Shown here one piece after another: positions 1,727 through 14,364 of a stretch of 16,549 nt of DNA; the first letter of the stretch is position 1; every line of letters begins with the position of its first letter. The stretch covers positions 1 to 16,549 of the forward strand of contig CAYSDH010000019.1 of NCBI GenBank assembly GCA_964429805.1. The letters run 5' to 3'. Below the pieces are notes generated by a model. That model saw nothing but the letters and a program-made list of their open reading frames with translations. It did not search any database and was not told the origin of the DNA. This DNA is from an uncultured Flavobacteriales bacterium (GTDB taxonomy: Bacteria > Bacteroidota > Bacteroidia > Flavobacteriales_D > JABDKJ01). Both the position numbers and the translations under genes were made by a program.

Positions 1727-3451
1727 CTATTTAATATCCTTCTTCTCCAACCAATCTACACCCTTCGCCAGTTCTACTGAGCTAAATTCTAACTGGATGA
1801 CTCGCCTCTTTTTTTGCTTCGTTATTCGGCCAGACCGGTGCAGTGTTAGTGGTCTAAAAACATGCACTCCACCAGCTCCAACTTCACAGAGTGATGGGCT
1901 ACAGTTTTCTGTGATAAGTGTAATCTCTTCTGGGCTCAACTGTTTCTTGTGTGAGCCCGGCACCACTTCCAGTGCTCCGTTTTTTGCATCAGTGTCATTG
2001 AGGTGGACTCTAATACTGAACATACTTTTTGAGATGTCTAGAGGAGGCAGCACCTTAGTCACGCCATCACTCTCAGTCCAGGCGCGATAGCCTCTGAGGT
2101 TTCTCTTCTTGTCGACATTAATCATGATGTCTTGATGCCACGAGACAAACCAGTTGACATCCTTACTTTTTTCAAAAAGTGTAGCCTTCACCAAAAAAGC
2201 GTTGGGGTCTATTTTCGAGATTATGCGTTTCAGATTTTTATTGAAAAGGAGGTTTTCCAGTGTCGGTATTTCCTTTAGCAGTTGACGGATGCCAGCACTT
2301 TTCTTGCTGCTTTTAGTGACATACTGGTCTACTTGAGTGCCAATCTTGCGCAGTTCACGTCTGCTGTATATATGATTTAGCACACTGCTTCCTCGCTGGG
2401 TGAGGGTCATCATGGCGCGGTTGAGGCCCTTCACACTCAGTTCTGTATTGTAATTATCGACAGCACCTTCTACACGAGTTTTGATTCGTCTTCTGAGCGA
2501 TGCAGGAGATAGCACGTTGACTCCTTCACCAAAGCCCAGTATCTCTTTCTCAAGCTCAAAGTTATGTTGCACCGTTAATCCGATTATAAGTCCATGTGCG
2601 TCTTTGTGTATGGTGCGCTGCGAGTGGTGCAGCGGTTTGGTTATGACATATGGCGCATGCTGATGCGTGAAAAAAAGTTGGATGTCTTCGGCCTCTACAT
2701 TCTCACTGACTGAGACGCCTATCACATCACTAAAGTGCCAGTCCGAGTCAAAGACTTCATCTTCTAGATATACATCATTGCTATGTTTCATACTATGTAT
2801 TCTGTCTAAGGCGAGTGTGACGACTGGTGAGCGCTTCTTTCTCCTCCCGATTAAAAACCATCTGTTTCTAAACTCCTTAAGAAGGTACGGTCTAAATCGA
2901 AAAGAATTTGCCTGCCTCGCCTTAAATGATTGATAGGTGATCTCAATCACCTTTCGCTGAATGATGCTCTGATAGAGCGTGTCCAGATGCTCGAGACCTT
3001 TAAGGTTTTCATTTTTCTCAAAGTCGATGACTGATCGGGTAGACGTTTTTTGAGAATAAATATGGTCTTCTAGTTTTTGAACCATACCGTCTAGTCCGCG
3101 AAAGTGTGAGAATCCTTGAAACTGCTTCATGAATTCTACTGCCTCACTCAGCATGCCAAGGTCCTGTGTGCTGAGTGGAATATTTGTGATGGAATAGTCC
3201 GCGTCTTCATACGTGTAGTATCTCTTGTCAATGACAATAATGGGTGCGTTATACCCCAATTTGTCACTTCGCATGACTTGTATGTCGGCCTGTACGGTGC
3301 GCTTACTTACCCCTTTGTCAATTCCTTCATATTCGTAAAGTGCATCAGAGCAAGCATCGATAAGGTCTTCTAGAGTCCACTGTTTAAAGCGGTTTTGCAA
3401 GCATTTGTCTAGTGTTTTGTATCGTATGAGAGCGTTTCTGTTAACGGGCAT
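1727..3451 (-). CDS. Fusion protein: N-terminal HTH + WYL + WCX regulator module joined to a C-terminal PhyH-like Fe(II)/2-oxoglutarate dioxygenase domain
   Basis: A single uninterrupted 574-aa ORF. Residues ~1-70 look like a DeoR/WYL-type HTH (NALIRYKTLDKCLQ...LEDLIDACSDAL...SKRTVQADIQVM). Residues ~180-250 carry the WYL core (RNRWFLIGRRKKRSPVVTLALDRI). Residues ~290-335 carry a WCX-like tail (GLIIGLTVQHNFELEKEILGFGEGVNVLSPASLRRRI). The C-terminal ~230 aa carry PhyH hallmarks: W-x-WHQD, ALEVVPGSH and a distal H in LTLHRSGRITKQKKRRV. Confidence 0.7.
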   Translation of the reverse strand: MPVNRNALIRYKTLDKCLQNRFKQWTLEDLIDACSDALYEYEGIDKGVSKRTVQADIQVMRSDKLGYNAPIIVIDKRYYTYEDADYSITNIPLSTQDLGMLSEAVEFMKQFQGFSHFRGLDGMVQKLEDHIYSQKTSTRSVIDFEKNENLKGLEHLDTLYQSIIQRKVIEITYQSFKARQANSFRFRPYLLKEFRNRWFLIGRRKKRSPVVTLALDRIHSMKHSNDVYLEDEVFDSDWHFSDVIGVSVSENVEAEDIQLFFTHQHAPYVITKPLHHSQRTIHKDAHGLIIGLTVQHNFELEKEILGFGEGVNVLSPASLRRRIKTRVEGAVDNYNTELSVKGLNRAMMTLTQRGSSVLNHIYSRRELRKIGTQVDQYVTKSSKKSAGIRQLLKEIPTLENLLFNKNLKRIISKIDPNAFLVKATLFEKSKDVNWFVSWHQDIMINVDKKRNLRGYRAWTESDGVTKVLPPLDISKSMFSIRVHLNDTDAKNGALEVVPGSHKKQLSPEEITLITENCSPSLCEVGAGGVHVFRPLTLHRSGRITKQKKRRVIQLEFSSVELAKGVDWLEKKDIK

Positions 3452-3544
3452 TCACTAATAATTTCAAGAAAAATAAAGAAAAATATTTACTACGCAGAAA
3501 GAGTGCGCAGTTACACGTCAGCTTTGTACTGTCAACGGATGAGA

Positions 3545-3590: not shown

Positions 3591-3797
3591 ATCAAGACAA
3601 GCGTTCTTTAAATAAGGAAAAGACATTGTACTCGGTGCGCAACACAAGGCACCGAGAACTAAAGACGATGTATGGAAGGGTATCGACAGACCGGATGAGG
3701 GTCTCTGTATGGCCCCGTAGTATGATCTCGCTCTGCGATGTCATGTGCTGCTGGTCGAAATCAGTCCTATATCACCATGCTCTGTGGGTCGGAGGTT

Positions 3798-3940
3798 CGA
3801 TTCCTCCCTGGATGTGAAATCCAGTAGTTCAGCTAGGTTAGAACAACAGAATGGAAAACGCGGGTTCGAGCCCCGCCTCGACATCAATCGAGTAGCTCAG
3901 TTGGTAGAGCACTACACTTTTAATGTAGTGATACGTGAAA
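3798..3940 (+). pseudogene. Cluster of degenerate tRNA-like fragments: two T-arm plus 3'-acceptor remnants and a 5' half resembling tRNA-Lys(TTT)
   Basis: GGAGGTTCGATTCCTCC+CTGGATG (3798-3824). GTTCAGCTAGGTTAGAAC D-arm ... GCGGGTTCGAGCCCCGC+CTCGACA (3829-3893), with an anticodon arm about 7 nt too short. Then TCAAT followed by CGAGTAGCTCAGTTGGTAGAGCAC TACAC-CTTTTAA-TGTAG (3898-3940), which lacks a T-arm. The short linkers (T-CAAT) match the spacing in the intact array at 5558-5784. No fragment folds into a complete cloverleaf. Confidence 0.4.
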
Positions 3941-4253
3941 TGAAAATTCACAAATCAAAAGGTCTGACTTCGCCTTAAGTAAGTCAAAAAAGGAATAAAG
4001 CAATGTCTTCTGTCGAGTGTGAATTTCATACATGACAATCCGCAAAAGACCGTGTAACGGAGGATGCGCTTTTTGGCATCTATCACTTCAGCACTCAGAG
4101 TCCTTGTCACGCATGCTCACACAGTGTATATGCCAACTTGGATATGAATGCTCAACTGACAGAGAAAGAAAAGCTCAATCCAGCGCACCTCTCTAGTGGA
4201 TGAAGACTTGCTGAGTTCCTGTATTAAAAAATTAAAGAGTAAAAACAAATAAG

Positions 4254-5348
4254 ATGAATAGAGTAAGAATCAATCAAGGTAAAGTCGGTGTAGTCACCTA
4301 TAAAAGAGACTATAACAGACTGATAACAGCCGGTACACACTGGTTGAGTTGGGGCGAATCTTACGTACTGTATGACGTGAGTGTCATTTATAGCGCGGAT
4401 AAGGATTTCGACCTGAGAATGAGGCGTCCTGCTTTTGCTGGGCGTGTAGAGCTTATCGAAGTCAATGATGGTGAATTGGCCATGGTCCAGTTGCACGGAG
4501 CGTTTGTGAGACTGCTCGAAGTTGGTAGATACTTCTTCTTTAAAAGTCATCTCGAGTTCAAGGTGACGATGATTGACATCACTTCCACAAAGCAGATTGC
4601 TGGTTGGAATTCTGAGTTGCTTAACAGAACCGATTTGGTGCGGCATCAGCGAGTCTATGCGGTAGAGCCTTTTGAAAAAGGACTCATGTTCATCGATGGA
4701 GATTTTGTCGGCTTGCTCGACAAGGGTATCCACAGATTTTGGAAAAATGCGTCTGTGATTCAAGTCTTCAAGGCTGATATGAGACAGATGACTCAAGAGG
4801 TTAATGGTCAAGAAATCTTGACTAAAGACAAGGCGGCCATCAGAATCAATTTCAGCACGCAGTACCACATCACAGATGTGCAAAAGGCGCTCTTGGAGAA
4901 TAAAGATCATGAGAAGCAGCTCTACATGTTGACTCAATTGGCGTTGAGGTCTTATGTCGGTGGGCTTACGCTTGACGAGTTGTTGGAAAACAAAGAGTCA
5001 GTGAGTGACTACATCGTGAGCAGATTGAAAACAGAAATCTCTGATCTTGGTATCGCAGTAGATCACTGTGGTATAAAGGATGTCATTCTTCCAGGAGAAA
5101 TGAAGGAGATCATGAATCAAGTCATGATTGCTCAAAAGCAGGCTCAGGCCAACACCATCACAAGACGTGAAGAAACAGCATCTACGAGAAGCTTGCTCAA
5201 CACGGCCAAGCTGATGGAAGACAACCAGATGCTCTATAAGTTGAAGGAAATGGAGTACTTGGAAAGGATCGCAGACAGAATCGGTGACATCACCGTCTCT
5301 GGCAACGGTCAAGTAGTAGATCAGCTCAGGCAGATCTTTGTGAAGTAA
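4254..5348 (+). CDS. SPFH/band-7 (stomatin/prohibitin-like) domain protein, apparently soluble (no N-terminal TM helix)
   Basis: The 364-aa ORF has an SPFH core: QEILTKDKAAIRINFSTQYHITDVQKALLE ... LRSYVGGLTLDELLENKESV ... LGIAVDHCGIKDVILPGEMKEIMNQVMIAQKQAQANTITRREETAS, followed by a coiled-coil-like tail. The first ~140 aa have no hydrophobic segment. The opposite-strand ORF 4224-4937 is regarded as spurious. Confidence 0.75.
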   Translation: MNRVRINQGKVGVVTYKRDYNRLITAGTHWLSWGESYVLYDVSVIYSADKDFDLRMRRPAFAGRVELIEVNDGELAMVQLHGAFVRLLEVGRYFFFKSHLEFKVTMIDITSTKQIAGWNSELLNRTDLVRHQRVYAVEPFEKGLMFIDGDFVGLLDKGIHRFWKNASVIQVFKADMRQMTQEVNGQEILTKDKAAIRINFSTQYHITDVQKALLENKDHEKQLYMLTQLALRSYVGGLTLDELLENKESVSDYIVSRLKTEISDLGIAVDHCGIKDVILPGEMKEIMNQVMIAQKQAQANTITRREETASTRSLLNTAKLMEDNQMLYKLKEMEYLERIADRIGDITVSGNGQVVDQLRQIFVK

Positions 5349-5355
5349 AGAAAGT

Positions 5356-5379
5356 GGGCCCCGAAAAGGGTCGGGGCCC
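5356..5379 (+). terminator. GC-rich hairpin (9-bp stem GGGCCCCGA/TCGGGGCCC, 6-nt loop) directly after the SPFH stop and 7 nt before tRNA-Lys
   Basis: The stem-loop is visible in the sequence. No U-run follows it (the sequence continues atatatg), so it may be an insulator or processing hairpin rather than a classical intrinsic terminator. Confidence 0.4.
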
Positions 5380-5385
5380 ATATAT

Positions 5386-5458
5386 GTATTCGTGGCTCAA
5401 TTGGTAGAGCACCGTGCTTTTAACACGGGGGTTGAAGGTTCGATTCCTTCCGGGTACA
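5386..5458 (+). tRNA. tRNA-Lys (anticodon TTT)
   Basis: Cloverleaf read by hand: acceptor GTATTCG/CGGGTAC (two G-U pairs), D-arm GCTC-AATTGGTA-GAGC, anticodon stem CCGTG/CACGG, loop CTTTTAA, T-arm GAAGG-TTCGATT-CCTTC, discriminator A. CCA is encoded (5459-5461). Confidence 0.85.
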
Positions 5459-5493
5459 CCAAAATAATAATTGTGTCTATTGCCCAGTGCATA

Positions 5494-5547
5494 AGACTTC
5501 GCTCATAGAGCGAAGTCTGTCCTGAGCTTGTTGAGGGGATTCCTTTT
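5494..5547. repeat. Conserved tRNA-array spacer element containing the hairpin AGACTTCGCTC-ata-GAGCGAAGTCT; an inverted homolog lies at 12651-12700
   Basis: An 11-bp perfect stem with a 3-nt loop at 5494-5518. The downstream stretch ...tcctgagcttgttgaggggattcctttt is about 84% identical (42/50) to the reverse complement of 12651-12700. Confidence 0.6.
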
Positions 5548-5557
5548 AGGCACATGT

Positions 5558-5629
5558 GTATCCGTAGCTCAGTGGTAGAGCGTTTGTTTGTTAAGCAAAG
5601 GGGCGGAGGTTCGAACCCTCCCGGATACT
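5558..5629 (+). tRNA. tRNA-Asn (anticodon GTT)
   Basis: Acceptor GTATCCG/CGGATAC, D-arm GCTC-AGTGGTA-GAGC, anticodon stem TTTGT/GCAAA, loop TTGTTAA, T-arm GGAGG-TTCGAAC-CCTCC. Confidence 0.8.
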
Positions 5630-5633
5630 CAAT

Positions 5634-5705
5634 GGTCTATTGGTCCAATGGCTAGGATTCCTCACTGTCGATGAGGTGGAAAGGGTTCGATTCCCTTATA
5701 GACCG
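5634..5705 (+). tRNA. tRNA-Asp (anticodon GTC)
   Basis: Acceptor GGTCTAT/ATAGACC, D-arm GTCC-AATGGCTA-GGAT, anticodon stem CCTCA/TGAGG, loop CTGTCGA, T-arm AAGGG-TTCGATT-CCCTT, discriminator G. It sits only 4 nt after tRNA-Asn. Confidence 0.85.
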
Positions 5706-5713
5706 CAATTTAC

Positions 5714-5784
5714 TGCCCGGTCGTCTAATGGCAGGACACCTCACTTTGACTGAGATTGTAGAGGTTCGAGTCCTCTCTGGGCAA
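5714..5784 (+). tRNA. tRNA-Gln (anticodon TTG)
   Basis: Acceptor TGCCCGG/CTGGGCA (one G-U pair), D-arm GTCT-AATGGCA-GGAC, anticodon loop CTTTGAC, T-arm AGAGG-TTCGAGT-CCTCT. There is one C-A mismatch at the top of the anticodon stem. It sits 8 nt after tRNA-Asp. Confidence 0.75.
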
Positions 5785-5862
5785 CATAGAGTCAAAATAA
5801 ATTTTACTGCGCATAAAGACTGCGTAGTGCCTCTTTTAATTTGTACTCAGAATGAAGAAATC

Positions 5863-7266
5863 ATGAAAGCACAAGAATTATTGACACTCGGTTATCCCGA
5901 ATCAAAGAGCATAGGAATCGCATTGACTCTTTCAGGTCAAATGAAAGAATGGACTAAAAAAGATCAATTGAAGGAATTCAAAAGAATCTTGGATCGTCCG
6001 ATTAATTATCTTAAAGATCCTTTGTTTAGTGAGTTAGCCAAATCGCTCATCGAGCCTGAAGCGCCTGAATTAGGTGTGCTCCGAGACAAGGCTTTGGACT
6101 ATACTATCTATGGTTCAGAAGGAATAGAAAACGGGGCACTGGAGCAAATCAGAATAGCCATGTCCTTGCCAGTAGCAAAGGCAGGAGCACTTATGCCTGA
6201 CGCCCATCAGGGTTATGGACTTCCTATTGGTGGAGTTCTCGCCACAGAAAATGCCGTGATACCTTATGGCGTGGGAGTAGACATAGGTTGCCGAATGTGT
6301 ATGAGCATATACGAGTTGCCTGCCTCTGCGACCAGAGAGCGAAAAGAAGAGTTGAAGAAAATGCTTCTGACTAATGCAAAGTTTGGTCGTGAAACATTTA
6401 AGCGGCCTAAAGATCATGAAGTGCTGAGCAACTCGCTCTTTGATGAGATACCTCTTTTGAAGACCTTGAAGAAAAAGGCCTACTCACAGATTGGTTCATC
6501 GGGCGGTGGAAATCACTTTGTAGAATTTGGTACGGTAGAGATTTTTGAAGAGGACGATCAGATTGGCCTAAAGCCTGGAAAGTACCTCTCGCTATTGACG
6601 CATTCTGGTTCTAGAGGATTTGGTGCGACCATTGCTAATCACTACACACGATTGGCACGAGAACTTTGTCCTCTTCCTTCAAGAGCCAAGAACTTGGCTT
6701 GGCTAGACTTGGATACAGAAGCTGGTCAAGAGTATTGGTTAGCCATGAATCTTGCCGGTGATTACGCCTCGGCATGTCATCATCAGATTCATGAGCGCAT
6801 GGCGGTCGGCTTAAGAACCACTCCGTTGGCCATGATTGAGAACCATCACAATTTTGCCTGGAAGGAAAAAGATGTTGATGGAAACCAAATCATAGTGCAC
6901 CGTAAAGGTGCCACGCCAGCTGGTGAGGGAGTTTTGGGAATCATTCCTGGTTCGATGACCGCTCCGGGTTTCATAGTCAGAGGAAAAGGTAATCATGAGT
7001 CCATTAACTCTGCCTCTCATGGTGCCGGTAGACAGATGTCAAGATCAAGAGCGAAGTCAAGCATCAAGCGATCTGACATGAATGACCTTCTTGGAAAAGT
7101 AGGTGTCGAAGTCATCGGTTCTGGTCTTGATGAAGCGCCACAGGCCTATAAGGATATCCATCAAGTAATGGAGCACCAAAAAGACCTGGTTGATGTCATT
7201 GGCAAGTTCCAGCCAAAGCTTGTCAGAATGTGTGGTGATAAAGAGTTGAGAAAAATCGACTCGTAA
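5863..7266 (+). CDS. rtcB: RtcB family RNA 3'-phosphate/2',3'-cyclic phosphate-5'-OH ligase
   Basis: RtcB motifs are present: GALMPDAHQGYGLPIGGV, GVDIGCRM, SSGGGNHF, HSGSRGFG, NHHNF, HRKGAT, IPGSMTAPGFIV and SHGAGRQMSRS. The ATG at 5863 was chosen because the 192 nt of the ORF-track ORF before it overlap the tRNA-Gln and tRNA-Asp genes. Confidence 0.9.
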   Translation: MKAQELLTLGYPESKSIGIALTLSGQMKEWTKKDQLKEFKRILDRPINYLKDPLFSELAKSLIEPEAPELGVLRDKALDYTIYGSEGIENGALEQIRIAMSLPVAKAGALMPDAHQGYGLPIGGVLATENAVIPYGVGVDIGCRMCMSIYELPASATRERKEELKKMLLTNAKFGRETFKRPKDHEVLSNSLFDEIPLLKTLKKKAYSQIGSSGGGNHFVEFGTVEIFEEDDQIGLKPGKYLSLLTHSGSRGFGATIANHYTRLARELCPLPSRAKNLAWLDLDTEAGQEYWLAMNLAGDYASACHHQIHERMAVGLRTTPLAMIENHHNFAWKEKDVDGNQIIVHRKGATPAGEGVLGIIPGSMTAPGFIVRGKGNHESINSASHGAGRQMSRSRAKSSIKRSDMNDLLGKVGVEVIGSGLDEAPQAYKDIHQVMEHQKDLVDVIGKFQPKLVRMCGDKELRKIDS

Positions 7267-7324
7267 TATATCTTTAATGCCAACCACAATAAGGTCAGTG
7301 GCCCTCTGGGTCGCTGGCCTTTAG

Positions 7325-8101
7325 TTGGTCTCAATGCCTAGTAAAATGAAAGAGGAAATAATGCAGGTGCTACAGCGCTTGCAAGAACAAACTGGAGTAA
7401 ACGTGTTGCTCGCTTGCGAAACAGGTTCAAGGGCATGGGGCTTTCCATCACCTGACAGTGATTATGACGTGAGGTTGATATACATGCATGAGTCGGCATG
7501 GTACAGCACACTCTTTGAGGCGAAAGACAGTCTGGAGTATATGTCAGATGATGGTGAGATAGACCTTACGGGCTGGGAGCTGCGCAAGTCTTTGCGCCTT
7601 CTGTGTAAGTCTAACGCTTCGCTCTTAGAACGACTTCAGTCACCCATAGTCTATTCGGAAAACGAAGTGTTCATGAAAAAGTTGAGGGAGCTAGTTCCTC
7701 AATTCTACTCCAAGCGAACCACGCTATATCACTATTTAAGCTTAGCCAAAAAAAGTTTGGCCCTCTGTGCCGATGACGAATACCGCTTGAAGACCTTTTT
7801 TTATGCGCTCAGAGCTACATGTGCTTGCCGATACATCTACTCCTTTGACTGTTCTCCGCCAATAGTTTTTCAAGAGATGCTTGATGGAATTGACATGAAA
7901 GATTCGCTTAAAACTCGGATACTTGAGCTTGTGAGTATGAAAGCGAATTTGAGTGAATCATATATGCATACAGGTGAACAAGAACTGATAGACTGGATGA
8001 GTCTAGCATTAGATCAATCCGAGCAAGAAGCCGATTCATTAGAAGTTTCTAATGCTGACGTGAAGGAACTAGATAAACTCTTATTTGAATCCATATCATG
8101 A
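7325..8101 (+). CDS. Pol-beta superfamily nucleotidyltransferase (COG3541-like 'predicted nucleotidyltransferase'), copy 1
   Basis: It carries the N-terminal NTase signature LLACETGSRAWGFPSPDSDYDVRLIYMH (G[GS]x9-13 D-x-D). It is about 258 aa with an alpha-helical C-terminal half. The start is uncertain; in-frame ATGs also occur at codons 4, 8 and 13. Confidence 0.7.
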   Translation: MVSMPSKMKEEIMQVLQRLQEQTGVNVLLACETGSRAWGFPSPDSDYDVRLIYMHESAWYSTLFEAKDSLEYMSDDGEIDLTGWELRKSLRLLCKSNASLLERLQSPIVYSENEVFMKKLRELVPQFYSKRTTLYHYLSLAKKSLALCADDEYRLKTFFYALRATCACRYIYSFDCSPPIVFQEMLDGIDMKDSLKTRILELVSMKANLSESYMHTGEQELIDWMSLALDQSEQEADSLEVSNADVKELDKLLFESIS

Positions 8102-9153
8102 CCATCTCTGAGTTAAAATCGAGTAATTGTATCGTGTTTGAATGCCTGAGTGGGAGTAAGGCACAAGGCTTAGCCACTGCCGATTCTGATACCGATATAC
8201 GGGGAGTATTTGTACTTCCCGCCAAGCAATTTTTCGGCAATTCTTACCTCCCTCAAGTAAGTGATGAGCGAAATGATACCGTGTATTATGAACTCGGACG
8301 GTTCGTGGAGTTACTGTCTAAGAACAATCCTAATGCGCTGGAGCTACTGTGCACTCCCGATGAGTTCGTGCTGAAGAGAGCGCCTATGATGGATTTAATT
8401 CCACCAGCGTTGTTTATGAGTAAACGCTGTCATAAAACATTTGTCGGATACGCATCTACGCAGATTGGAAAAGCCAAAGGCCTGAATAAAAAAATAAATA
8501 ATCCTATGCCTAAAACACGGCCAACGGTACTTGATTTTTGTTTTGTCACCGACCAGCGCCATACTAAAAGTTTAACTCAGCTGCTCGAAGAGAACAGCTG
8601 GAGGCAAGAAGATTGCGGCTTGAGTAAAATGGCCAAGATGCCTGACATGTATGCGCTTTTTCATCATTCTGAAAGCATCTATGAAGGCATTTTTAAGGGT
8701 GATAACGCCAATGATGTCTGCTTGAGTAGTATCCCCAAAGAGGAAAAGATGGTGGCCTATGTGCACTTCAGAAAGTCTGCATATTCAAAGTACTGCAGGA
8801 AGCACAGAGAGTATTGGGATTGGGTAGAGAAAAGAAATGAGAGTAGATATCAATCCACAATATCGCATGGTAAGCAGTATGATGCAAAGAATATGATGCA
8901 CACCATCCGTCTGCTTCGCATGGCCAAGGAGATTGCTGAAACGGGAGCGGTTGTTGTAAAAAGGGAAGACAGAGATGAGTTGTTAGCCATACGGTCAGGT
9001 GAGTTCTCGTATGAAAAGCTGATTGAAATGTCAGAAGCATTGATGTCAGAAATTGAATGTTCTTTTGCTACATCAGACCTTCCTGCAACACCTGATTTAA
9101 AAGCGATAAATCAAGCGCTTGTGCAGATTAGAACAGACTATTACGGACATTAA
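8098..9153 (+). CDS. Pol-beta superfamily nucleotidyltransferase, copy 2 (351 aa), translationally coupled to copy 1
   Basis: Signature IVFECLSGSKAQGLATADSDTDIRGVFV. Its start codon overlaps the upstream stop (ATGA at 8098-8101). It has a longer C-terminal region than copy 1, and the two are only distantly related paralogs. Confidence 0.7.
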   Translation: MTISELKSSNCIVFECLSGSKAQGLATADSDTDIRGVFVLPAKQFFGNSYLPQVSDERNDTVYYELGRFVELLSKNNPNALELLCTPDEFVLKRAPMMDLIPPALFMSKRCHKTFVGYASTQIGKAKGLNKKINNPMPKTRPTVLDFCFVTDQRHTKSLTQLLEENSWRQEDCGLSKMAKMPDMYALFHHSESIYEGIFKGDNANDVCLSSIPKEEKMVAYVHFRKSAYSKYCRKHREYWDWVEKRNESRYQSTISHGKQYDAKNMMHTIRLLRMAKEIAETGAVVVKREDRDELLAIRSGEFSYEKLIEMSEALMSEIECSFATSDLPATPDLKAINQALVQIRTDYYGH

Positions 9154-9376
9154 AGAATACTGATCGGTTTCCTTTATTATGCGAGGCATGTTCATCTAGC
9201 TGATTGCTCCTTTGATATAATGTTGACCAATTGCTCTTTAAGACGAGGGTGATTTTGTGCGCTAATTGTAAGTGTCTCAGTGATCACTTAATCACCTTAT
9301 TCAGTCGCTATCAGCTGTTTGATTGAAGCAAAAAAAGAATGTACTACCATAAAGTCCATTTAAAGGCAATTAGACG

Positions 9377-9393
9377 AAAAAATAAAAAAAAAA
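9377..9393. repeat. Homopolymeric tract A6-T-A10 in the promoter region of the T9SS repeat-protein gene
   Basis: gaaaaaataaaaaaaaaagg, read directly; it lies 70-86 nt upstream of the ATG at 9463. Confidence 0.9.
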
Positions 9394-9462
9394 GGAGATT
9401 CAGGTAAGCGTATTTAGGCTCAATTGCATCTAGGAGGGGTAAATCATCAAATCCCATCAAAA

Positions 9463-12400
9463 ATGAAAATTGAATCAAACTCCATATTCGCCAAAAGTAT
9501 TACCCCTTTTCTGAGTGCATTGTTCTTGCTCTTTTCTGTGCAAGCAAATGCCTGTGCAGATATTGTTCAGTTCCAATTTACTAATGGAACTCAAACAATT
9601 CTCATCTCAGATGGTGCAGCATATAACCTAGATGATTTACCAGATGATTTTTATCTAGAGGCAGTTGTCAATGGCAATGAAGAAAGTGTTTCTTTTCACG
9701 TCTCTTCATCAAACAACTCCTTCACCTACAGCGTAGTTGAGAATTATGTTCCTTACACTTTTCCAGCTGGAAACGGGGCATGGCATCTTGGAGATGGTCA
9801 TTTTAGTGTTTCCGCCAGTGCTTATTCTCACCCTTATGCTGGTGGCACTTTTTGTGATCATGAGTCAATAAACTTTACGCTGTCTGAAGGAGTGGAGACG
9901 TGCTCAGCACTTGCCGGAACACTCAGTGGAGGCGGAGATATTTGCAATATCAATGAGACGCACTTGACGGCAACTCCAAACGGAGATGCGGTTATTCCTA
10001 ACGGATATCAGACAGTCTTTGTGCTTACTCAAGGTTCTGAGTTAGTTATAATAGGAGCGGGAGCCGAAGCTGATTTTACAGTCGCTGAAGATGGTATGTA
10101 CACCATCCACTCTTTAGTGTATGACCCTTCTACTTTAGATTTGAGTATAGTCGTACCAGGTGTGACTACTGGTTTTGATGTCTTTGGATTATTGCAAGAT
10201 GGAGGCGGAGATATCTGCGCTTCACTAGATGTGGCCGGAGCACAGTTTCAGGTCGCAAATCCAAGTGCGGGTACCTTGACAGCAAATCAAAGTGAAGTGC
10301 CACTTGATGGAGGTGCAGCAACAATATCAGCCACTGCCAATGGAGACATCAATGTGCCAATGGGTTACTCTTCAATTTTCGTGTTGACTCAAGGAAGCGA
10401 GTTGACTATTGTTAATGCAGGAGGCGAGCCAAGTTTTGAGGTAACAGAATCAGGAGACTACACCATCCACACCTTAGTCTTTGACCCAACAACTTTAGAC
10501 CTGAGTATAGTTGAGCTAGGAGTAACTACAGGAGTAGATGTCTTCGGCCTTATCGTGCCAGGTGGAGGTGCAATCTGTGCCGATCTTGATGTGGCCGGGG
10601 CGCCTATTACAGTCTCTGCAGATGAGTCATGCTCAGCACATGCCGGAACACTCAGCGGAGGAGGAGATATTTGCAATATCAATGAGACGCACTTAACGGC
10701 AACACCAAACGGAGATGCAGTTATTCCTAACGGATATCAGACAGTCTTTGTGCTTACTCAAGGTTCTGAGTTAGTTATAATAGGAGCGGGAGCCGAAGCT
10801 GATTTTACAGTCGCTGAAGATGGTATGTACACCATCCACTCTTTAGTGTATGACCCTTCTACTTTAGATTTGAGTATAGTCGTACCAGGTGTGACTACTG
10901 GTTTTGATGTCTTTGGATTATTGCAAGATGGAGGCGGAGATATCTGCGCTTCACTAGATGTGGCCGGAGCACAGTTTCAGGTCGCAAATCCAAGTGCGGG
11001 TACCTTGACAGCAAATCAAAGTGAAGTGCCACTTGATGGAGGTGCAGCAACAATATCAGCCACTGCCAATGGAGACATCAATGTGCCAATGGGTTACTCT
11101 TCAATTTTCGTGTTGACTCAAGGAAGCGAGTTGACTATTGTTAATGCAGGAGGCGAGCCAAGTTTTGAGGTAACAGAATCAGGAGACTACACCATCCACA
11201 CCTTAGTCTTTGACCCAACAACTTTAGACCTGAGTATAGTTGAGCTAGGAGTAACTACAGGAGTAGATGTCTTCGGCCTTATCGTGCCAGGTGGAGGTGC
11301 AATCTGTGCCGATCTTGATGTGGCCGGGGCGTCAATCACAGTAGTTTCAGCAGATGTGTGTACAGCTTTTGCAGGTACTTTAACGGCCGATGCTGATGAA
11401 TATGCATGGAGTGGAAGCCCCATTACCGTGTCAGCTACCCCAAATGGTGATGTCAATGTACCAAACGGATACGGATCAATATTTGTGCTTACGCAAGGAC
11501 CAGACTTGGTCATAGTTGGAGCAGGAGCTTCGCCAGAATTTGAAATCAATCAGCCTGGGCAGTTCATCATTCATACGTTAGTCTATGACCCGAATACACT
11601 TGACCTTGGAATAGTAGAACTTGGTGTGACGACAGGTTTTGATGTCTTTGGACTTATAGTGCCAGGTGGAGGTTCCATTTGTGCAGATCTTGATGTTGCA
11701 GGAGCAGCTATTGTGGTTGTTGAAACTGACGGATGCGCAGCAGATGCCGGAACATTAGTCAGTCATCCAACCATCACATGTTTAAACGAAGGCACTGGTG
11801 ATATTTTTGCCCAAGAGGACATTGAGCCTGTAATTCCAGCTGGTTATGAAGTGCTGTATGTACTTACGAATGCATTCGGACTAACTATTGAAGATGTCAG
11901 CGCCTCACCAGAGTTTACAGTTGAGCACGCTGGGTTTTACAGAGTGCATACTCTCGTCTATGACCCTGCAACGCTAGATTTGAGCATCGTAGAGTTTGGC
12001 GTGACTTCAGGTTTTGATGTCAATACTCTTCTGATTCAAGGTGGTGGCGAAATTTGTGCATCGCTCTTATTGCATGCCCCATTGACGCTCGTTCTTCCAG
12101 AATATTTCTGCAACACATTCGTCTGGCACTTCCTCAACAACAAAGCGGCAGACGCAGTTGACCTCGAATCTATAGTTGATTCATACGAAGATTATGCCTC
12201 ATTTGAGAAGTCTCTTATGGTCATGAATGTGAGTGTTTATCCAAATCCTGTGACAGATGTTTTGTCCATAGACTTGCAGCTCTTAGATGATGAGCTTATC
12301 CAGATTCAGGTCATAGACCTTAGTGGGAGAGTAGTCATGGACAGAAGAATAAACAATGCTGAAGGGTTAAATCAATTAGACCTTTCTTCACTGTCAGACG

Positions 12401-12468
12401 GTCAGTACGTATTAAACATTCAGTCACAGTTTAGAGCATTCACTAAATCCATTCAAGTGAGTAAATAA
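9463..12468 (+). CDS. Secreted cell-surface repeat protein with a T9SS (Por) C-terminal sorting domain
   Basis: The start was moved to M14 of the track ORF, giving a signal peptide MKIESNSIFAKSITPFLSALFLLFSVQANA. The C-terminal ~80 aa match the T9SS CTD (NVSVYPNPVTDVLSIDLQ...GQYVLNIQ...). The central part consists of about six copies of a ~120-aa domain (GY..FVLTQG..L.I..AG....F.V.E.G.YTIH.LV.DP.TLDLSIV..GVTTG.DVFGL...GG.IC..LDVAGA). Confidence 0.8.
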   Translation: MKIESNSIFAKSITPFLSALFLLFSVQANACADIVQFQFTNGTQTILISDGAAYNLDDLPDDFYLEAVVNGNEESVSFHVSSSNNSFTYSVVENYVPYTFPAGNGAWHLGDGHFSVSASAYSHPYAGGTFCDHESINFTLSEGVETCSALAGTLSGGGDICNINETHLTATPNGDAVIPNGYQTVFVLTQGSELVIIGAGAEADFTVAEDGMYTIHSLVYDPSTLDLSIVVPGVTTGFDVFGLLQDGGGDICASLDVAGAQFQVANPSAGTLTANQSEVPLDGGAATISATANGDINVPMGYSSIFVLTQGSELTIVNAGGEPSFEVTESGDYTIHTLVFDPTTLDLSIVELGVTTGVDVFGLIVPGGGAICADLDVAGAPITVSADESCSAHAGTLSGGGDICNINETHLTATPNGDAVIPNGYQTVFVLTQGSELVIIGAGAEADFTVAEDGMYTIHSLVYDPSTLDLSIVVPGVTTGFDVFGLLQDGGGDICASLDVAGAQFQVANPSAGTLTANQSEVPLDGGAATISATANGDINVPMGYSSIFVLTQGSELTIVNAGGEPSFEVTESGDYTIHTLVFDPTTLDLSIVELGVTTGVDVFGLIVPGGGAICADLDVAGASITVVSADVCTAFAGTLTADADEYAWSGSPITVSATPNGDVNVPNGYGSIFVLTQGPDLVIVGAGASPEFEINQPGQFIIHTLVYDPNTLDLGIVELGVTTGFDVFGLIVPGGGSICADLDVAGAAIVVVETDGCAADAGTLVSHPTITCLNEGTGDIFAQEDIEPVIPAGYEVLYVLTNAFGLTIEDVSASPEFTVEHAGFYRVHTLVYDPATLDLSIVEFGVTSGFDVNTLLIQGGGEICASLLLHAPLTLVLPEYFCNTFVWHFLNNKAADAVDLESIVDSYEDYASFEKSLMVMNVSVYPNPVTDVLSIDLQLLDDELIQIQVIDLSGRVVMDRRINNAEGLNQLDLSSLSDGQYVLNIQSQFRAFTKSIQVSK
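9901..10629 (+). repeat. Tandem direct repeat unit 1 (729 bp, encoding two domain copies)
   Basis: 9990-10601 is 100% identical to 10719-11330 (612 bp, checked line by line). The first ~90 nt differ at 6 positions. Confidence 0.95.
10630..11358 (+). repeat. Tandem direct repeat unit 2 (729 bp)
   Basis: See unit 1. Identity drops after 11330 but homology continues into the next, diverged domain copy. Confidence 0.95.
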
Positions 12469-12566
12469 ACCTCTGGACTAATGTCCTTATTGAGGCCCCT
12501 TGCATTTTTGCAAGGGGCCTTTTATTGATGTGTCTTGGTAAATTAGGACAGCTCGTATGCCTACTG

Positions 12567-12639
12567 TTGATCTGGCTGGACTTGAACCAGCGACCTCTTG
12601 CGTATAAGGCAATTGCTCTGACCACTGAGCTACAGATCA
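12567..12639 (-). tRNA. tRNA-Ile-like with anticodon TAT (reads AUA)
   Basis: Minus-strand sequence: TGATCTG-TA-GCTC-AGTGGTCA-GAGC-A-ATTGC-CTTATAC-GCAAG-AGGTC-GCTGG-TTCAAGT-CCAGC-CAGATCA-A. The backbone (GAGGTCGCTGGTTCAAGTCCAGC) resembles bacterial tRNA-Ile. Loop positions 34-36 are T-A-T with U33 and A37. There is an A-G mismatch at 27-43. Confidence 0.65.
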
Positions 12640-12650
12640 TTGTCGCGCAT

Positions 12651-12700
12651 GAAGGAATCCCTTCGGCAAGCTCAGGATAAACTTCGCTCTGTGAGCGAAC
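12651..12700. repeat. Inverted homolog of the tRNA-array spacer hairpin element (partner at 5496-5547)
   Basis: The minus-strand sequence GTTCGCTCACAGAGCGAAGTTTATCCTGAGCTTGCCGAAGGGATTCCTTC matches 5496-5547 at 42 of 50 positions. It contains the hairpin TTCGCTC-aca-GAGCGAA. Confidence 0.6.
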
Positions 12701-12750
12701 CTCCATCTACCCATAATGAGTGGGTCGCCTTACCATTGGACCAATGCACG
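12696..12750 (-). pseudogene. Truncated tRNA pseudogene (CAT-anticodon-like; the 3' part from the T-loop onward is missing)
   Basis: Minus-strand sequence CGTGCATTGGTCCAATGGTAAGGCG-ACCCA-CTCATTA-TGGGT-AGATGGAGGTTCG. It has a perfect 5-bp anticodon stem, but position 37 is T. It runs straight into the spacer hairpin at the TTCG of its T-loop, and its D-stem is degenerate. Confidence 0.35.
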
Positions 12751-12760
12751 TTTTGTTTTG

Positions 12761-12832
12761 TCACGCCTAGGGGAATCGAACCCCTGCCTACTCATAGAAA
12801 GTGAGCCGTCCTGACCGTTAGACCAAGGCGCG
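12761..12832 (-). tRNA. tRNA-Glu (anticodon TTC)
   Basis: Minus-strand sequence: CGCGCCT-TG-GTCT-AACGGTCA-GGAC-G-GCTCA-CTTTCTA-TGAGT-AGGC-AGGGG-TTCGATT-CCCCT-AGGCGTG-A. The D-arm and T-arm closely resemble bacterial tRNA-Glu. T at position 37 is atypical. Confidence 0.75.
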
Positions 12833-12858
12833 TTAGATTTCTCGTCCCTGAATTCTGA

Positions 12859-12876
12859 ATTTGACCTTGGTCAAAT
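12859..12876. promoter_or_regulatory. Perfect palindrome ATTTGACC-TT-GGTCAAAT in the spacer between tRNA-Glu and tRNA-Tyr
   Basis: Read directly from the sequence: 8-bp arms around a 2-bp centre. Possible dimeric protein-binding site or processing hairpin. Confidence 0.3.
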
Positions 12877-12938
12877 CAGAAAGCACTATTTCTCCCACCC
12901 GTGCTGACCTCTTTACGAGGCCCCAAGAAATCGACTCG

Positions 12939-13023
12939 TGGGGTTGGCAGAATTCGAATCTGCTCAGCCTATCAGGCAACGGATTTACAGTCCGCTCCAG
13001 CTCTCCAGCTCTGGCGCATCCCC
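12939..13023 (-). tRNA. tRNA-Tyr (anticodon GTA), type II with a long variable arm
   Basis: Minus-strand sequence: GGGGATG-CG-CCAG...CTGG-A-GCGGA-CTGTAAA-TCCGT-TGCCTGATAGGCTGA-GCAGA-TTCGAAT-TCTGC-CAACCCC-A. It is 85 nt long. There is one A-A mismatch at acceptor pair 5-68. Confidence 0.7.
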
Positions 13024-14058: not shown

Positions 14059-14364
14059 ATGGCTTCATTTAAAGAACTCACATCCTCATCTACACCCACA
14101 TTAGTTGACTTTTTTGCAACATGGTGTGGGCCATGCAAGACGCTTGCACCCATTCTCAAAGACTTAAAAAAAGAGCTTGGAGAATCAGTGAGAATCCTCA
14201 AAGTAGATGTCGACAAGAACCCCAAGGCGGCTCAGAAGTTTGGAGTCCGTGGAGTGCCACTTCTTATTCTATTTAAAAACGGAGATATAGTTTGGAAAGA
14301 GAGTGGAGTAAGGCCAATGGCTGAATTAAAAGAAATAATTCTTCCTCACACAGAGGCGTCCTAA
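14059..14364 (+). CDS. trxA: Thioredoxin
   Basis: A 101-aa ORF with the canonical WCGPC active site (FFATWCGPCKTLAPIL) and the thioredoxin-fold pattern (VDVDKNP...FGVRGVPLLILFKNG). It lies 28 nt downstream of the previous ORF. Confidence 0.9.
   Translation: MASFKELTSSSTPTLVDFFATWCGPCKTLAPILKDLKKELGESVRILKVDVDKNPKAAQKFGVRGVPLLILFKNGDIVWKESGVRPMAELKEIILPHTEAS

Follow-up and report, generated by a model that had tools for sequence, protein, structure and literature searches.

Why should a bacterial chromosome crowd transfer RNA (tRNA) genes around the gene for an RNA ligase? The question is raised by a stretch of 16,549 nt from an uncultured Flavobacteriales bacterium (assembly GCA_964429805.1, contig CAYSDH010000019.1), referred to here as the window, in which seven tRNAs and one tRNA-like unit lie within 7.6 kb. 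This density is far above the genome average of about one tRNA per 100 kb, and the same region carries the ligase gene rtcB and two genes for nucleotidyltransferases (NTases). An earlier note on this DNA, made from its letters and open reading frames (ORFs), had taken positions 5386–13023 for a self-contained tRNA-damage countermeasure island bracketed by inverted tRNA arrays. The reading favoured here, with modest confidence, is that the locus is a tRNA-damage regulon under a WYL-family repressor, in which the repair of broken tRNAs is paired with the supply of replacement tRNAs.

A metagenome scaffold of 61.6 kb matches the window at 99.8% identity, and in its flanks are found tig-clpP-clpX, an MFS gene and a thioredoxin gene. 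The presence of tig-clpP-clpX indicates a chromosomal context and not a phage, and no phage genes were found in the neighbourhood of the locus. For comparison, two sets of loci were assembled. Set 1 consists of 80 loci from GTDB species genomes of Cytophagales and other Bacteroidota, anchored on RtcB (56–67% identity), and set 2 of 80 metagenome loci anchored on the Band-7 protein encoded upstream of RtcB (45–57% identity, 843.5 kb in total), giving 160 related loci. The tRNA genes were called with ARAGORN and with Rfam RF00005 (gathering score 29), and protein families were assigned with Pfam on the ten large ORFs of the window, together with NCBIfam and PADLOC scans.

The predicted regulator and its operators

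Along the window the elements follow one another as operator 1, a non-coding RNA (ncRNA), Band-7, four tRNA genes, operator 2, RtcB and two NTases of the RlaP family, RlaP1 and RlaP2, with the gene for a WYL-WCX-PhyH protein reading divergently (Table 1). The left boundary at 5386 drawn by the earlier note falls inside this arrangement, which starts some 3.6 kb further upstream. Across set 1 the recurrent layout is a divergent WYL-PhyH gene, a non-coding region, Band-7, RtcB and, at times, the RlaP1-RlaP2 pair; in 21 of these loci a gene for a TPR-like protein of 174 amino acids (aa) sits just upstream of RtcB.

The regulator possesses a conserved N-terminal region containing a putative helix-turn-helix (HTH), followed by WYL (50.6 bits) and WCX (42.2 bits) domains and a PhyH-type 2-oxoglutarate (2OG)/Fe(II) dioxygenase. 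Its best PDB chains are of the PafBC type, the nearest solved sequence being the PafBC-type regulator 7p5x. The N-terminal 80 aa form the most conserved part of the protein, with all HTH families falling short of E 0.01. Within the PhyH domain, 26 homologues all keep the oxygenase residues HxD...H...R, and this invariance of the HxD motif, the distal His and the Arg points to a maintained catalytic or ligand-sensing function. The gene adjoins the operon in 31 of 80 related loci, and a PADLOC scan of the window returned generic WYL matches alone. Among the ten large ORFs there was no match to the families of RtcR (CARF-AAA+-HTH) or RtcA and, with a WYL-WCX-PhyH protein as the adjacent regulator, rtcB lies outside the canonical rtcR-rtcBA context.

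Two copies of a 23-bp palindrome with the consensus ACTRCGCA-N7-TGCGYAGT occur in the window, one ahead of the regulator gene and one ahead of rtcB. Of the 80 set 1 loci, 38 carry the same operator at equivalent sites, ahead of WYL-PhyH, RtcB or RlaP1, against a single match in shuffled sequences. Taking the window and both sets together, TTTG stands exactly 11 nt downstream of 88 of 99 operators; at operator 1 it lies at 3523–3526 and serves the plus-strand unit. The Bacteroidetes -7 promoter box, TAnnTTTG, ends in TTTG, and the WYL regulators BrxR and CapW act as repressors. The locking of the operator into the promoter core argues for a repressor here also. A scan for sigma-70 promoters returned fewer sites than were obtained in shuffled sequences.

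Operator 1 heads the tRNA mimic of YrlA-like type, Band-7 and the tRNA-Lys, Asn, Asp and Gln genes, and operator 2 heads RtcB, RlaP1 and RlaP2. In six loci a tRNA, usually Tyr(GUA), begins 84–90 nt past the operator and forms the first element of the predicted regulated transcript, and in several set 2 loci an array stands at the 3' end of one operator unit, directly before the next operator. The whole regulon is predicted to be under the control of one WYL-family repressor.

The tRNA arrays and their composition

The plus-strand array Lys-Asn-Asp-Gln described by the earlier note was called by both ARAGORN and Rfam, with its four tRNAs scoring 57–72 bits against RF00005. Its proximity to rtcB stands, but the distance of 78 nt does not, given that the first in-frame ATG yielding a full RtcB is at 5863 and the gap from tRNA-Gln is 77 nt. 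The minus-strand array was also borne out for the most part: the Ile and Glu genes were called by two tools and the Tyr gene by a profile hidden Markov model (HMM), whereas the supposed pseudogene with a CAU anticodon is a tRNA-like unit that keeps a 7-bp acceptor stem and a CAU anticodon arm and carries a 37-nt insertion in its T-loop. The Tyr(GUA) gene at 12938–13023 was called neither by ARAGORN nor, at E ≤ 1, by Rfam. The HMM, constructed from 19 ARAGORN-called Tyr(gta) genes of relatives, matched 13023–12938 over its full length (55.1 bits, E 6e-17), and on the strength of this match the gene is regarded as real; it is homologous to the Tyr gene located after the operator in many relatives. 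The possibility that this gene is a pseudogene whose D-arm contains an 8-nt duplication was ruled out, as the alignment of the 19 Tyr genes and the HMM show a normal class II D-arm.

A 48-nt element, present as a T-loop insertion in tRNA-like units, occurs twice at 88% identity, at 5498–5545 on the plus strand and at 12652–12699 on the minus strand, where it makes up the 37-nt insertion of the CAU unit. Both host units (5472–5554 and 12643–12750) are closed by a 7-bp acceptor-like stem, and the hairpin of the element (TTCGCTC-AYAG-GAGCGAA) pairs with the T-loop TTCG. No copy was found in the 160 related loci and no match in Rfam; a mini-insertion, an intervening sequence and a decay product are the candidates for its nature. 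The two window arrays share this duplicated element and have paralogous Asp/Glu backbones.

The association of tRNA genes with the rtcB locus recurs in relatives and is non-random, in agreement with the earlier note, with a tRNA density of 5.8 and 27.6 per 100 kb in the two independent sets of loci. Set 1 contains 58 tRNAs in 39 Band-7-positive loci and 19 in 41 Band-7-negative loci, and at least one tRNA is present in 26/39 of the former against 8/41 of the latter (Fisher p = 3e-5). The question raised by the earlier note, whether rtcB and two NTases always travel with tRNA arrays, is answered in the negative, since only about half of the loci with an RlaP pair carry tRNAs; Band-7 is the better guide to where tRNAs occur. 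Set 2 contains 233 tRNAs in arrays of up to 19 genes, and 229 of the 233 lie on the Band-7 strand. With this co-orientation to the operon, the inverted bracket is not conserved, and the two arrays of the window enclose no single unit because RlaP2 and the second array are separated by an unrelated 3-kb gene (9424–12468) for a repeat protein with a C-terminal sorting domain of the type 9 secretion system (T9SS).

Relatives differ in array content, which means that the block is no invariant core, and the content shifts fast even within Roseivirga (loci L035, L042, L043, L049, L052 and L053). For the window tRNAs, the best match of the same anticodon among 80 related loci reaches only 71–85% identity. 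Array tRNAs are rich in Lys, Gln, Tyr, His, Phe, Asp, Glu, Asn, Cys, Pro, Arg(ACG) and Leu(UAG), with Gly, Ala, Val or Thr accounting for 3 of 323 array tRNAs (P ~5e-27 if they formed just 20% of genes, for counts that are not phylogenetically independent). The anticodon pattern on which the earlier note had built therefore survives as a bias towards split codon boxes (Lys, Gln, Glu, Asn, Asp, Tyr, His and others) that holds across 322 tRNAs and 160 loci, but its mapping onto known anticodon-nuclease targets is post hoc, because the published targets of tRNA-cleaving nucleases (tRNases) now cover many tRNA species.

The discriminator base (N73) follows the textbook rules of the cognate synthetase across 20 specificities, for example His C (21/23), Cys U (19/20), Asp G (22/22), Ser G (14/14), Trp G (7/7), Tyr A (30/30) and Pro A (19/19), which argues for chargeable tRNAs and not mere mimics. 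Standard sense anticodons are present in more than 97% of array tRNAs. A few arrays contain odd anticodons, UUA (which would read the UAA stop), AAA, AUU, AUG and ACA, in tRNAs sited at L107:11151, L101:8967, L160:6802, L019:5532 and L044:6007. Position 37 is atypical in several species: A37 occurs in none of the 22 array Asp tRNAs, which have U37 or G37 instead, U37 or G37 is frequent in array Glu, and A37 is found in 18 of 19 array Pro tRNAs. In bacterial tRNA-Pro, by contrast, m1G37 is regarded as universal and essential. Taken together, the biased composition, the atypical loops and the 71–85% identity suggest a fast-evolving, non-housekeeping tRNA lineage.

The tRNA mimic, Band-7 and the repair enzymes

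An 800-nt non-coding region precedes Band-7 and gives sub-threshold Rfam matches to YrlA and tRNA at 3783–3951, the scores against YrlA (RF02553), 37.6 and 35.8 bits, lying below the gathering threshold of 69. Its core consists of two tandem modules, each formed by a T-arm, an acceptor stem closed by a loop and a D-arm, with a closing stem that encloses module 1 and an anticodon-like arm (loop CUUUUAA) that comes after module 2. RNAalifold, unaided, recovered the fold from the window and 14 loci with 36 pairs, of which 31 show compensatory changes. Pairing holds in 93.6% of cells, compared with 74% in shuffles and 41–50% with the partners slid, and none of 500 shuffles was as good. In the window, covariance model R1 reaches 57.3 and 63.5 bits; strong matches (at least 45 bits) to the module covariance model are present in about 40 of 81 sources, 25 of these being loci outside the training set. 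All strong matches lie on the operon strand beside Band-7 or Rsr. Matches of 20–35 bits to the permuted-module model were discarded as junctions of tandem tRNAs. It has been pointed out that YrlA-like calls can be tandem-tRNA artefacts (PMC4201824), an origin that the closed, covarying acceptor hairpin rules out here. Judged by the published descriptions (PMC4201824, 10.1101/312249), the predicted architecture of the ncRNA is of the YrlA type.

The anticodon-like loop of module 2 copies that of ANN-decoding tRNAs, being of the Lys, Asn, Ile or Met type according to the locus. In the window, the D-arm and anticodon-like arm of module 2 (3892–3923) are 81% identical to tRNA-Lys(UUU) (5392–5423), which suggests that the mimic may be derived from, or homogenised with, a Lys-type tRNA. 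A Band-7 homologue is located directly upstream of RtcB in 37 of 81 sources. The window contains no TROVE/Ro60 gene. In eight loci (L007, L012, L014, L031, L047, L062, L065 and L066) a Ro60/TROVE-vWA (Rsr-like) gene replaces or joins Band-7 with the same operator, and in five related loci Rsr-like genes occur with the same permuted RNA modules.

The RtcB ligase named in the earlier note was confirmed by Pfam far above its cut-off (Table 1), and NCBIfam RtcB models match the protein below their equivalog cut-offs. The translation retains DIGCRM, GGGNHF, HSGSRG, NHHN and SHGAGR, leaving the catalytic motifs intact; we take these to hold the metal-binding Cys/His residues and the GMP-accepting His (HGAGR). 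RtcB joins 3'-phosphate or 2',3'-cyclic-phosphate ends to 5'-OH ends.

The stop of RlaP1 and the start of RlaP2 overlap as ATGA at 8098–8101, as the earlier note had reported for its two pol-beta NTase genes, and through this overlap RlaP2 is presumably translationally coupled to RlaP1. Its proposal that both are ligase-associated was supported by their placement in RlaP (PF10127), 'RNA ligase-associated Pol-beta' (PMC12776372), a name that comes from linkage to RNA ligases (PMC12776372; PMC7824862). RlaP1 sits 58 nt downstream of the rtcB stop, likely starts at ATG 7334 or 7346 and carries GSRAWG...DSDYD, the GS...DxD motif of NTases. In RlaP2 the PF10127 match is limited to residues 11–123 (profile positions 19–137), and hhalign against the RlaP1 family gave 96.9% probability with only an 80-aa core aligned; its C-terminal 230 aa matched neither a family nor a solved relative, and PDB sequence searches returned nothing for RlaP1 or RlaP2. 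The alternatives named in the earlier note, the AbiEii/MenT, CD-NTase and antibiotic (ANT) families, were not matched by either protein in Pfam, NCBIfam or PADLOC. The sole other match was MntA (E 0.0013, 18.6 bits against a cut-off of 60). The RlaP1-RlaP2 pair is kept in the same order in 11 set 1 loci and 8 set 2 loci.

Full-length RlaP2 homologues are present in 297 phage records, for example NC_049340.1 (111802–112920) and NC_024354.1 (107846–108967). In Tenacibaculum phage PTm1 a gene unrelated to RlaP1 precedes the homologue, no tRNA lies within 8 kb of the homologue in PTm1 or in Cronobacter phage CR8, and the phage collection contains no Band-7 homologue. In CR8 the RlaP2 homologue is located about 2 kb from the gene of a CCA-adding enzyme.

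Table 1. Coordinates of the features discussed, in window order (module 1 and module 2 are parts of the ncRNA core)
Feature	Position	Strand	Evidence and remarks
WYL-WCX-PhyH regulator, divergent	1727–3451	-	Pfam WYL 2e-13, WCX 1e-10, PhyH 2e-10
Operator 1, palindrome ACTACGCA-N7-TGCGCAGT	3489–3511	.	38 nt upstream of regulator start codon
ncRNA core, two tandem circularly permuted tRNA-like modules	3740–3960	+	module 1 3790–3845, module 2 3859–3911
Band-7/SPFH protein	4254–5348	+	PF01145, 5.2e-31
G+C-rich hairpin between Band-7 and tRNA-Lys	5354–5381	+	no clear U tract
tRNA-Lys(UUU)	5386–5461	+	ARAGORN and Rfam; CCA end encoded
Degenerate tRNA-like remnant with 48-nt hairpin element	5472–5554	+	z-score -4.2
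tRNA-Asn(GUU)	5558–5630	+	ARAGORN and Rfam
tRNA-Asp(GUC)	5634–5706	+	ARAGORN and Rfam; atypical anticodon loop CUGUCGA (G37, A38)
tRNA-Gln(UUG)	5714–5785	+	ARAGORN and Rfam
Operator 2, ACTGCGCA-N7-TGCGTAGT	5806–5828	.	TTTG at 5840–5843; 35 nt upstream of rtcB ATG
RtcB RNA ligase	5863–7266	+	PF01139, 280.5 bits against cut-off 27, E 3.8e-83
RlaP1 Pol-beta NTase	7325–8101	+	PF10127, 231.8 bits, profile positions 1–248 of 249
RlaP2, NTase core and distinct C-terminal ~230 aa	8098–9153	+	PF10127, 76.5 bits (cut-off 23)
T9SS-sorted repeat protein, 1014 aa	9424–12468	+	between RlaP2 and minus-strand array
tRNA-Ile(UAU)	12566–12639	-	ARAGORN and Rfam (71.7 bits)
tRNA-like unit, CAU anticodon arm, 37-nt T-loop insertion	12643–12750	-	
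tRNA-Glu(UUC)	12760–12832	-	ARAGORN and Rfam; atypical anticodon loop CUUUCUA (U37)
tRNA-Tyr(GUA), class II, A:A mismatch at acceptor pair 5:68	12938–13023	-	HMM

The hairpin between Band-7 and tRNA-Lys could be a 3' stabiliser or a weak terminator. The gene at 9424–12468 is unrelated to RNA repair; it contains two 729-bp tandem copies that are 97–98% identical, plus further diverged repeats, and its product looks like a recently expanded cell-surface repeat protein. A gene for a 147-aa P-loop kinase-like protein recurs in four related loci. Between the scaffold and the window, 12 of 19 substitutions fall within 110 bp (14094–14202) inside the thioredoxin gene, a cluster that suggests a short recombination tract or a strain-variable segment.

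Known systems and competing accounts

The view that the architecture would be new as a described system has to be withdrawn. RtcB operons with Band-7 and a 'b7a-tRNA' strongly resembling real tRNA were predicted by Burroughs and Aravind in 2016, and occasional swaps between YrlA/Ro60 and b7a-tRNA/Band-7 were noted by them (both as relayed by Wang et al., 10.1101/312249). Rfam contains no b7a-tRNA family. Band-7, the YrlA-like mimic and the WYL regulator place the window locus among these operons and, by its predicted components, it is a member of this class of Band-7/tRNA-like-RNA/RtcB/RlaP repair operons. As in that class, Band-7 adjoins RtcB, a tRNA-like RNA lies beside Band-7, RlaP stands by the ligase, and Band-7 alternates with Ro60/TROVE, here in eight related loci. 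Compared with the 2016 description as relayed there, the non-coding part of the locus differs in being a tandem permuted YrlA-like mimic accompanied by arrays of 1–19 apparently chargeable tRNAs of many specificities, and the locus has a WYL-WCX-PhyH regulator with its operator and two coupled RlaP paralogues.

The Salmonella rsr-yrlBA-rtcBA operon, under RtcR and sigma-54 (Chen 2013/2014; Hughes 2020), is induced by damaged tRNA, with tRNA halves acting through RtcR (PMC7790460). Both systems combine RtcB with a scaffold protein and a tRNA-mimicking Y-like RNA of the same YrlA fold. However, RtcR, RtcA and Ro60 are missing from the window, where Band-7 takes the place of Ro60 and a predicted WYL-type repressor that of the CARF-containing bacterial enhancer-binding protein (bEBP) as activator. 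Module 2 furthermore keeps an anticodon-like arm, the RNA scores below the Rfam gathering threshold for YrlA, and real tRNA genes are found within the operon.

The idea of a tRNA reservoir beside rtcB is not new either. Santamaria-Gomez et al. 2021 (PMC8421152) described supernumerary tRNA arrays (L-arrays) of cyanobacteria that lie next to rtcB and, under translational stress, share its regulation. A role as reservoir or sponge was proposed for them, and L-arrays spread by horizontal gene transfer (HGT) and occur in Bacteroidetes among other phyla. The window shares the clustering of tRNA genes next to rtcB; the supernumerary status and the promoter repeats in common with rtcB reported for the cyanobacterial arrays would here be putative. 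L-arrays also reach 43 genes and have direct repeats, compared with 4+4 genes, a palindrome and a biased composition in the window.

Phage tRNAs replace host tRNAs depleted by nucleases, or evade the nucleases through changes of the anticodon loop (PMC10264068, PMC11464382, PMC12673091), examples of such counter-defence being T4 against PrrC, T5 tRNAs against PARIS and Retron-Eco7, and mycobacteriophage tRNAs with altered anticodon loops. In phage sets of tRNAs with RNA ligase, Pnkp or RlaP, as may be the case in the window, variant tRNAs replace depleted ones while ligases and NTases mend those that were cut, and RlaP2-type NTases are widespread in large phages. In contrast to these sets, the window locus is chromosomal, is under a predicted cellular repressor and includes Band-7, for which the phage collection holds no homologue. 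Both the system class and the idea of replacement plus repair are thus already in print. The WYL-PhyH regulator with its phased operator, the biased multi-tRNA arrays with an atypical position 37 and the tandem mimic may be new, and the recurrence of co-oriented arrays of up to 19 genes with the Band-7 unit, as well as the pairing of cognate discriminator bases with an often atypical position 37, may add to what is known.

In the regulon reading favoured here, the regulator would occupy its promoters in unstressed cells. Damage to tRNA, by anticodon nucleases or other tRNases of competitors, by phage-triggered defences or by the cell's own toxins, would free the regulator via its WYL domain, the signal possibly being RNA fragments. 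RtcB would then reseal breaks with 2',3'-cyclic-phosphate and 5'-OH ends, the RlaP pair would restore one or two nucleotides trimmed from the 3' fragment, and Band-7 with the tRNA mimic would act as a scaffold, cofactor or decoy. The co-transcribed array tRNAs would resupply the most vulnerable species, and some of them may be poorer nuclease substrates owing to their altered anticodon loops. The minus-strand array (Tyr, Glu, CAU-like and Ile) would represent a displaced part of the same evolving tRNA island and not the boundary of a unit. For the RlaP step there is a precedent in that RlaP adds 1–2 nucleoside monophosphates to damaged RNA 3' ends and restores the aminoacylation of over-trimmed tRNA (PMC12776372).

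Several considerations weigh against this reading. Repression, its relief, co-transcription of the arrays and the replacement role are all inferred. The extra-supply step is putative for Lys, Asn, Gln, Ile and Tyr, whose anticodon loops look canonical, and tRNAs with U37 or A37 instead of the usual base could be poor decoders and not nuclease-resistant. The products of RlaP carry a 3'-OH, which RtcB is unable to join without a further step, as noted in PMC12776372. Transcription of the Band-7 unit could be terminated by the hairpin at 5354–5381 ahead of the array, and a promoter of the sigma-70 or the strict Bacteroidetes TAnnTTTG type was found before neither array. The minus-strand array, moreover, has no operator, reads in the opposite direction and follows an unrelated gene, and the tRNA counts were taken from related loci that are not phylogenetically independent.

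A bolder form of the regulon reading is put forward tentatively, and we doubt that all its parts will hold: free-living Bacteroidota would keep inducible, chargeable back-up tRNAs, restricted to nuclease-attacked species and with altered loops, in a regulon of WYL protein, RtcB, RlaP heteropair, Band-7 and mimic, in which the WYL domain or the dioxygenase senses damage. If this is true, the altered loops of the back-up set (U/G37 in Asp and Glu, A37 in Pro) would blunt nuclease or modification-dependent recognition, and the locus would do in a cell what the 'replace and evade' strategy does in phages, besides being the first WYL-governed RNA-repair regulon.

The embedded tRNAs might instead be cofactors, baits or sponges, an account based on the 'b7a-tRNA' idea in which they bind Band-7 or RtcB or soak up anticodon nucleases. 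Their linkage to Band-7, which exceeds that to RtcB/RlaP, would suit such a role, and the same predicted transcript contains a non-chargeable tRNA mimic with an anticodon-like arm that is itself probably such a bait. Unusual bases at positions 37 and 33 and the odd anticodons of some arrays (tta, aaa, att, atg, aca) are also consistent with it, and related ideas are in print, a sponge for array tRNAs in PMC8421152 and a competitive inhibitor for YrlA in PMC7790460. However, a pure decoy needs no cognate discriminator base, whereas those of the arrays track the synthetase rules over 20 specificities and more than 97% of the anticodons are standard sense triplets, and this account is considered unlikely.

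Less probable again is that the arrays are uncoupled from repair, being either horizontally moving, supernumerary arrays of the L-array kind or RNase P/Z 'punctuation' in a permissive, structured non-coding region. L-arrays are known to spread by HGT, Bacteroidetes included (PMC8421152), array content changes rapidly even within Roseivirga, and the position of the arrays varies: some follow the operator, others Band-7 or RtcB, and others lie downstream of the regulator. Against this stand the co-orientation of 229 of 233 set 2 tRNAs, the fixed operator spacing of 84–90 nt in six loci and the specificity of the enrichment for Band-7-positive loci (p = 3e-5). Neither punctuation nor hitch-hiking predicts the consistent exclusion of Gly, Ala, Val and Thr in two independent sets.

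The undescribed island of 5386–13023, delimited by inverted arrays and with RtcB and two NTases as its proteins, is now very improbable. Its listed elements all exist, and the duplicated 48-nt element and paralogous Asp/Glu backbones do connect its two arrays. The class of system has nevertheless been described already (PMC12776372, 10.1101/312249, PMC8421152), and the conserved unit, which takes in the ncRNA and Band-7, has its start at the regulator and operator (1727/3489). The T9SS gene inside it is unrelated, and the inverted bracket is unseen in relatives. Least credible of all is a bacterial, RtcB-dependent tRNA splicing in which the T-loop-interrupted units are split by an intervening sequence and ligated after its excision by RtcB, the splicing ligase of archaea and animals: two 37–48-nt insertions with a hairpin that pairs with the T-loop do lie within tRNA-like units, yet a splicing endonuclease is absent from the window, a bulge-helix-bulge motif is not evident, the element is missing from 160 related loci that all keep RtcB, and the host of one of the two copies is clearly degenerate.

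Which substrates bacterial RtcB has in the cell, and what Y-like RNAs, Band-7 and RlaP do there, is still unsettled. The array tRNAs point to a list of substrates, namely tRNAs of split codon boxes, with Gly, Ala, Val and Thr species nearly absent, and the operator and regulator provide a direct handle for induction experiments in cultured Cytophagales. Should the array tRNAs not be nuclease-evading, the locus would be one more member of the operon class predicted in 2016. Should they prove to be nuclease-evading replacements, the replacement of cleaved tRNAs, known as a phage strategy, would serve cells too, as a defence against the tRNase toxins of other bacteria.

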